From sequence record PQ438391.1: a stretch of DNA of 64,000 nt; one strand, 5' to 3'. Position numbers and translations under genes: made by a program. Below, one piece after another: positions 22,749-23,169 of the stretch. The notes below the pieces were generated by a model, which was not told the origin of the DNA, ran no database searches, and saw nothing but the letters and a program-made list of their open reading frames with translations. Position 1 is the first letter of the stretch; each line of letters begins with the position of its first letter. This DNA comes from Escherichia phage vB_Eco_T-01.

Positions 22749-23108
22749 ATCATGGAACTTATTACATAATTATTTGACGGCGCTTCGGCGCCGGTTGTTA
22801 ACTTAAATCCTAAGCATAAAATACCACAAATTTTTGCTATTCAAGCCGGCGAAGAAAGCGTGCTTCCTGGATTTAGATTTTGTACATACACCTCTGGCGG
22901 TGATACAGATAAAACGTTAAACCAGGCGACAAAATGATGCATATCGTAATAATAGGTGTTAATGAGAAACTATCATTAGTTAAGCTTAAAAACTTGGGTG
23001 GAAATCCAATTGGTGTCATTAATGCTGTTTTTGATACTGCTCTTCAAACAATGAAACAGTATAAAATCGACGCATGCCTATTCCGCGTACTAAAAAGTTC
23101 AAAATGTA
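22749..23108 (+). pseudogene. Decayed paralogue of the alt 5' region (first ~120 codons), with an in-frame stop, a frameshift and an embedded hairpin
   Basis: MELIT-stop, then LFDGASAPVVNLNPKHKIPQIFAIQAGEESVLPGFRFCTYTSGGDTDKTLN, then a frame shift into MMHIVIIGVNEKLSLVKLKNLGGNPIGVINAVFDTALQTMKQYKIDACLFRVLKS, all parallel to Alt residues 1-120; hairpin ggcgcttcggcgcc at 22779-22792. Confidence 0.6.
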
Positions 23109-23161
23109 GTTTACAAGTCCCTCGTGTTGTGTTATAGTAGTCTTACTGACATAACATGAGG
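23109..23161 (+). promoter_or_regulatory. Promoter-early stem-loop cassette, copy B (near-identical to 9672-9724)
   Basis: GTTTAC 23109-23114; arms cctcgtgtt 23120-23128 and aacatgagg 23153-23161; one substitution relative to copy A. Confidence 0.55.
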
Positions 23162-23169
23162 AACACAAA

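Follow-up and report, generated by a model that had tools for sequence, protein, structure and literature searches.

Directly downstream of the ADP-ribosyltransferase gene alt, Escherichia phage vB_Eco_T-01 carries a short broken stretch that is very probably the pseudogene remnant of a full-length second alt gene, lost by a 1,699-bp deletion and apparently non-functional. The stretch occupies positions 22749-23137 of the window, which is the whole 64,000-nt piece of sequence record PQ438391.1 that was analysed. To judge from this locus, the window is that of a T4-type phage, about 98% identical to T4 around alt, and the broken stretch is the alt.-1/alt.-2 region of T4, which is already annotated, so that the finding is in essence already known. 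The points added here are modest: the fragments are the stump of a full second alt gene, the junction lies at a 9-nt repeat, and the window has one more inactivating mutation that is absent in T4. The origin of the fragments was settled by DNA comparison, and the features discussed below are collected in Table 1.

Table 1. Positions of features in and around the broken stretch, numbered along the 64,000-nt window
Feature	Position	Strand	Basis and remarks
alt, resident full-length ADP-ribosyltransferase gene, 684 aa	20694..22748	+	ORF; Pfam PF03496 E=3e-33; annotated alt in T4
5' remnant of second alt paralogue, codons 1 to ~115 of a 685-aa gene; equals T4 alt.-1 and most of alt.-2	22752..23098	+	collinear with RB32 (L003:4450-4839), 93-98%
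Truncated alt.-1: ATG, four more codons, TAA (MELIT, stop)	22752..22769	+	three-way alignment; G to T at 22767; T4 has GAA and a 61-aa ORF
C(UUCG)G tetraloop hairpin, GGCGCTTCGGCGCC	22779-22792	+	-12.8 kcal/mol; 31 nt downstream of alt stop
-1 frameshift site: A4 run, A5 in the intact paralogue; splits the alt.-1 and alt.-2 frames	22911..22914	+	alignment; in 23/24 remnant carriers, absent in fPS-90
alt.-2 ORF, 67 aa; residues 1-55 are paralogue 62-116, last 12 are out-of-frame read-through into the promoter	22934..23137	+	phrog_15247 and phrog_802 matches
Single surviving copy of 9-nt direct repeat CTAAAAAGT, junction of the 1,699-bp deletion	23090-23098	+	repeat alignment
Last codons and original TAG stop (23107-23109) of the lost paralogue	23099..23109	+	100% identical to RB32 (L003:6539-6649)
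Early promoter/stem-loop cassette	23109-23162	+	-35 GTTTAC 23109-23114, -10 TATAGT 23133-23138
Second cassette copy, between rnlA and alc	9672-9725	+	53/54 identical, same orientation; -27.7 kcal/mol, z=-5.5
alt.-3, 96 aa, DUF5498, intact conserved gene, probably driven by the cassette	23170..23460	+	Pfam PF17602 E=1e-64; early RNA and protein in T4
C(UUCG)G hairpins	15824, 16704, 20645, 22779, 35692	+	motif scan
C(UUCG)G hairpins	45291, 38649, 32015	-	motif scan

The broken stretch and its counterpart in T4

The order of genes around the stretch is DNA ligase (gene 30), alt.1, alt, the short broken stretch itself and a 96-aa ORF, followed on the opposite strand by genes 54 and 48. Over 22600-23600 the window shares 97.5-99% identity with T4 and close relatives of T4, and against the T4 records the identity is 97.5-97.9% over 1,001 nt, with alt, alt.-1, alt.-2, alt.-3 and 54 all collinear.

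Several observations were made on the surroundings in their own right. On the 5' side of alt (20645-20674) a GGCC-UUCG-GGCC hairpin and its T-run precede the late-promoter consensus of T4, TATAAATA, an arrangement that fits a late, packaged Alt (RNA class middle and protein class late in the T4 omics data). The resident Alt protein is a mosaic between phages, as the 684-aa version of the window (20694-22748) and the 697-aa version of RB32 (L003:2404-4497) share their N- and C-terminal parts and have very different middles, and different alt alleles, 2,049-2,094 nt in length, accompany the remnant in the phages that carry it. At the other end of the locus, between the converging alt.-3 and 54, lies a hairpin with a 9-bp stem (23465-23486), which drew a terminator-like call on both strands and is annotated as a terminator in other phage records.

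The sequence-only reading had seen here a broken copy of the 5' end of alt, 65-70% identical by estimate and placed directly downstream of the gene, together with the scar of a rearrangement, and both were borne out. Local alignment of the alt 5' end (20694-21025) with 22749-23076 gave 230 matches in 340 columns (67.6%, or 71.9% without the gap columns) and a score of 114, far above the 20.2 +/- 2.5 of 300 shuffles (maximum 34). That reading had extended the similarity to about 23108, whereas the alt-homologous part stops at the deletion junction (23089-23098). The stop after MELIT (TAA at 22767-22769), the frame break upstream of KMMHIV, which is the A5 to A4 change relative to the intact paralogue, and the 67-aa ORF were all found where they had been placed, and the stop of the last lies within the cassette's -10 box. 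The remnant is not a single open frame, being interrupted by the nonsense codon at 22767, by the -1 frameshift at 22911-22914 and by the out-of-frame junction. Nor does the window keep open both of the ORFs known from T4 (61 and 67 aa), as alt.-1 has TAA at codon 6 and alt.-2 alone is open.

It had also been surmised that T4 may carry comparable small ORFs downstream of alt, and it does. Record AF158101.6 annotates alt.-1 (61 aa), alt.-2 (67 aa, with an ATGA overlap with alt.-1) and alt.-3 (96 aa), and its note says that alt.-1 and alt.-2 together apparently duplicate the first part of alt, with a stop codon acquired. Nolan et al. 2006 (PMC1524935) describe the T4 ORFs alt.-1 and alt.-2 as paralogous duplications of alt. 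Petrov et al. 2010 do not mention alt, and no specific description of the second alt paralogue came out of a search of the literature.

An intact second alt gene and the deletion junction

When the copy was translated with its frame repaired and compared with a phage collection, about 430 records matched at 90-95% identity; among the matches listed in this band, each was unbroken over residues 1-116, was 93-95% identical and lay under features annotated as Alt-like ADP-ribosyltransferases. In RB32 and T2 the gene is 2,058 nt long (685 aa), starts 4 nt past the alt stop and is followed by alt.-3. The intact paralogue matches PF03496 (E=6e-20 for RB32), spans the whole of the Alt-like profile phrog_802, and keeps the LYR, STS and ExE motifs; its identity to Alt is 42% along the whole protein and rises to about 68% in the N-terminal 240 residues. 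Its internal 1.6 kb was found in 402 phage records. A 121-nt probe spanning the junction of the window found a one-piece match in 90 records, T4 included; in other records the junction divides it into two matches, which have precisely the 9 nt of the repeat in common. By these record counts the long form is the majority state, and T4 appears in the minority that lost the gene.

The remnant and the RB32 gene are misleadingly annotated in public records. Several of the GenBank records F25, pSe_SNUABM_01, SP21535, ELT1 and fPS-90 label fragments of 61 or 67 aa 'ADP-ribosyltransferase' despite the lack of a catalytic domain, and the RB32 record names the intact gene 'alt.-2' with an 'apparent insertion'.

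In the window, the two remnant fragments match phrog_802 at positions 2-61 (E=4e-18) and 64-120 (E=6e-20), and the repaired peptide matches Alt N-termini across many phages. No Pfam match was obtained for the 67-aa ORF; the ADP-ribosyltransferase domain (R / STS / ExE) falls within the deleted 1,699 bp. The window and RB32 are collinear except for two gaps, a 1-nt deletion in the A-run and the one deletion of 1,699 bp, and the 111 nt past the junction are 100% identical. Three intact alleles were examined (RB32, T2 and an IMG/VR contig), and each has CTAAAAAGT twice at a spacing of exactly 1,699 bp, where the window has it once; the left copy covers codons ~113-115 of the paralogue, and the right copy falls among the final codons and ends 11 nt short of the -35 box. 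Compared with an intact allele from which the deleted segment is taken out, the remnant differs at 11 of 421 aligned positions, in addition to the 1-nt gap. Since 1,699 is not divisible by three, the ORF continues out of frame across the junction, reading VLKS up to it and SKCSLQVPRVVL beyond it, and stops inside the -10 box.

Slipped mispairing and short-homology recombination classically leave behind one copy of a short direct repeat and delete a length equal to the spacing of the repeats. Since one short repeat copy is left here and the deleted length is the repeat spacing, such an event probably gave rise to the stump. T4-type phages would ancestrally have had two tandem alt genes, the second beginning 4 nt past the stop of the first and encoding a 685-aa ADP-ribosyltransferase. 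In the lineage of T4 and the window, slipped mispairing or short-homology recombination between the two copies of the repeat would have removed codons ~116-682 of the second gene and joined the first ~115 codons, out of frame, to the last three. Homopolymer slippage from A5 to A4 would next have split the stump into alt.-1 and alt.-2, and in the sub-lineage of the window a G to T substitution would have turned codon 6 of alt.-1 into a stop.

The sequence-only reading had derived the stretch differently, as a partial duplication made in place, in which only the first ~360 nt of resident alt were copied and then decayed to ~68% identity. Homology to the alt 5' end at a position directly downstream of alt agrees with this origin, as does the T4 record with its words 'a duplication of the first part of gene alt', but it is extremely improbable in view of the full-length intact paralogue at the same position in 402 records, the 96-98% identity of the remnant to that paralogue versus 68% to resident alt, and the single copy at the junction of a 9-nt repeat that in intact genomes stands on either side of the missing 1,699 bp. 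The 68% identity to alt therefore measures the divergence of paralogues and not decay, and in place of a decayed partial duplicate the stretch is the remnant of a separate, long-diverged paralogue that is intact, and about 97-98% identical, in those 402 records. The opposite polarity, in which the long form is derived and about 1.7 kb were inserted into an ancestral short alt.-2, has the RB32 record note ('apparent insertion in alt.-2') to recommend it and can hardly be correct at all, as the long form is one uninterrupted ORF with full-length Alt homology and a complete catalytic domain and it is the short form that is frameshifted and out of frame across the junction. Tandem full-length alt paralogues are, moreover, also present in more distant phages (Nolan 2006, PMC1524935; multiple matching places per record).

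A truncation or module swap by recombination at the adjacent PeSL cassette had also been put forward. The cassette is truly repeated, occurring twice in the window, it adjoins the remnant, and a role for PeSLs in bringing about insertions and deletions has been proposed for T4-like phages (PMC2839356, PMC4122927), yet this route is very improbable given where the endpoints lie. Both are 9-nt repeats in coding sequence outside the cassette, the right one (23090-23098) 11 nt 5' of the -35 box and the left one without cassette or promoter similarity, and the 9-nt repeat is the only sequence common to the two. The cassette adjoins the remnant because the TAG stop of the paralogue (23107-23109) overlaps the first base of the GTTTAC -35 box. 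Deletion between the two repeats, leaving the stump of a second alt gene, is the reading followed below.

Yersinia phage fPS-90 (LR215723.1, L024 319-740) has the 1,699-bp junction and the codon-6 TAA, but not the A-run frameshift; RB32-like variants reach to within 21 nt of the junction, and its alt.-3 is a divergent one of 92 aa. Either the 9-nt repeats gave rise to the deletion a second time, or gene conversion with an intact-type phage as donor stopped at the heterology boundary, and the haplotype hints that the deletion possibly arose more than once through the repeats. A scan of a viral contig collection for the junction sequence returned four loci; as the pattern is found in the 3' end of the intact paralogue too, it does not separate the two forms, and 22 isolates from the phage collection were used instead.

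Coding capacity and RNA elements of the stump

Twenty-four carriers of the remnant were compared, namely the window, T4, IME537, 19 other isolates and 2 metagenomic contigs; as these are related and form a non-random sample, the counts are of genomes and not of independent events. Codon 6 of alt.-1 is TAA in 16 of the carriers, the window among them, and GAA in the other 8, which include T4. The alt.-2 ORF is 67 aa long in 17 of the 24 and 39 aa in four, through the loss of 1 nt in a T-run, and three single cases are F25 (74 aa, a 1-nt loss past the junction), F1 (64 aa, a 9-nt deletion) and ACG-C40 (68 aa, loss of the stop). The neighbouring alt.-3 has 96 aa in 27 of 28 genomes, with mostly silent variation. 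Non-synonymous to synonymous polymorphism stands at 18:9 in the remnant frames versus 7:23 in alt.-3 (Fisher p=0.0014); for alt.-2 alone the four non-synonymous and three synonymous changes are too few to tell neutrality from constraint (p=0.16). The synonymous divergence of the remnant versus that of alt.-3 was rejected as a test of constraint because recombination gives the two different coalescence times, remnant alleles being no older than the deletion. The stump measures 412-422 nt across all carriers, a near-constant length that may point to a recent origin, or to spacing or RNA being under some constraint.

Expression in T4 can be followed in published omics data (PMC9697503). In the portions of its Tables S2 and S3 that hold these genes, alt.-1 and alt.-2 share the RNA class 'middle' with alt, and no protein class is assigned to either. 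Among the proteomic rows listed, the intensity of Alt.-1 is zero in 24 of 24 samples and P39494 (Alt.-2) has no row at its accession-sorted place, non-detection that is weak evidence as mass spectrometry often misses small proteins. Alt and Alt.-3 are clearly detected in the same listed data, Alt.-3 being early in both RNA and protein, and the stated coverage is up to 85% of T4 proteins.

The surviving ORF had been thought to be possibly a truncated Alt peptide with a function of its own, a claim for which no support emerged. It is improbable that the Alt.-2 peptide of 67 aa, made up of residues 62-116 of the paralogue and a new 12-residue tail, is expressed as a small protein with a function of its own, for example as a modulator of Alt or of Alt packaging. 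Its ORF is intact in the window and in 17 of the 24 carriers, its ATG has a weak AGG 7 nt upstream and the region is transcribed in T4, but the ORF is altered in 7 of the 24 (frameshifted to 39 aa in four carriers, with three other length changes), no excess of synonymous change is seen, and no such protein appears in the listed T4 proteomic data, with their coverage of up to 85%. The partner ORF upstream, alt.-1, which overlaps its start in ATGA, is knocked out in 16 of the 24, and in the window its stop at codon 6 means that translational coupling into alt.-2 is lost. The carrier and omics data favour a non-functional remnant, and the stump, which is transcribed as a 3' extension of alt mRNA, most likely has no useful product; the hairpin and the promoter cassette are probably the two signals in the interval that still count. 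It is likewise unlikely that the stump is active in some broader sense, whether through an Alt.-2 peptide that acts on Alt, on the capsid packaging of Alt or on a host factor, or through stump RNA and its UUCG hairpin as a regulatory 3' region tuning alt or alt.-3.

The GC hairpin within the stump had been described as a lesion that replaces codons of alt. It is present at 22779-22792 as described, but it is no lesion, as in the intact paralogue it stands in frame and encodes GASAP; it is invariant in 27 of 27 aligned sequences. C(UUCG)G hairpins are a known and over-represented feature of T4 transcripts, and the 64-kb window holds eight perfect ones with 5-bp stems, where about 0.1 would be expected by chance (an estimate made for this analysis). 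No U-run follows the stem at 22779-22792 and no terminator was called there, which makes termination less likely than a role as an RNA stability or processing barrier, and the hairpin probably plays that part at the 3' end of alt mRNA. In the listed T4 data (PMC9697503), the RNA downstream of the hairpin shares the temporal class of alt, which suggests read-through. An Rfam scan of 22500-23600 found no family in the interval, its two chance-level matches lying outside the remnant.

The sequence-only reading was right that the segment ends in a promoter stem-loop cassette, of which BLAST found two copies in the 64-kb window (23109-23162 and 9672-9725), one preceding alt.-3 and the other alc. 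The promoter scan gave TTTACA and TATAGT with a 17-nt spacer (10/12, with extended TG), the -35 being of the T4 type GTTTAC; a search for GTTTAC-N-TATAAT promoters returned nothing, the -10 of the cassette being TATAGT. The cassette at 23109-23162 folds at -23 kcal/mol (z=-4.0), and the record of phage Lutter annotates it as a promoter. Such a promoter fits the early expression of alt.-3 in T4. The 3' arm of the stem holds the alt.-3 Shine-Dalgarno sequence, GAGG, paired with CCUC. Transcripts that start about 7 nt past the -10 would miss the 5' arm and leave the alt.-3 ribosome-binding site free, and RNA reading through from alt would mask the site by stem pairing. T4 uses stem-loop arrangements of this kind at the ribosome-binding sites of several genes. 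The cassette probably drives alt.-3, and in read-through RNA would pair the ribosome-binding site of that gene. Wild-type Alt.-3 is without known function, and T4 mutants with an extended Alt.-3 C-terminus escape the CmdTAC defence by blocking the degradation of CmdA (PMC11618068).

Significance and comparison with known systems

T4, the reference phage, is here the unusual one, in that about four in five of its sequenced close relatives keep another Alt-type ADP-ribosyltransferase that is intact and probably active, and studies of ADP-ribosylation in T4 miss an enzyme that is common in the group. The ORFs alt.-1 and alt.-2 are better annotated as pseudogene fragments than as hypothetical proteins or as 'ADP-ribosyltransferase'. 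Beyond annotation hygiene of this kind there is little significance, the alt.-1/alt.-2 duplication having been in the record and the literature for about twenty years.

The closest known system is T4 alt.-1/alt.-2 itself (GenBank AF158101; UniProt P39495, P39494), with which the window shares the locus, the junction and the frameshift at 97.5-98% nucleotide identity, as well as the flanks, with alt upstream and alt.-3 and gene 54 downstream. The window differs in the G to T change at 22767, which puts a stop at codon 6 and leaves only alt.-2 as an ORF, and in a few point changes, such as M6I and L50F in Alt.-2. The full-length paralogues of RB32 ('alt.-2', YP_803136), T2 (BBF63359) and about 400 other Tequatrovirus records are 93-98% identical to the window over their first ~340 nt, the in-frame UUCG hairpin included, and have in common with it the start 4 nt after the alt stop and the promoter and alt.-3 downstream. 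In contrast to these genes, the window is without the 1,699 bp that hold the middle region and the whole ADP-ribosyltransferase domain, and it carries the frameshift and the nonsense codon.

The published PeSL cassettes (Arbiol 2010, PMC2839356; Comeau 2014, PMC4122927), compared here by their features, resemble the cassette of the window in having a repeated sigma-70-type early promoter and a stable stem-loop before small early genes. They differ in that the cassette of the window is not the source of the deletion endpoints, and in that its stem-loop spans the -10 box and the start region and is not an upstream terminator; the alt.-1/alt.-2 locus is not discussed in either of the two papers.

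The junction, placed exactly at a 9-nt repeat, makes the locus a clear case from nature of short-homology deletion in a T-even phage genome. The deletions between short direct repeats in T4 that are familiar from the classical rII studies likewise left one repeat copy at the junction and had a deleted length equal to the repeat spacing; those were laboratory mutants, whereas the deletion in the window is a natural and widely propagated allele.
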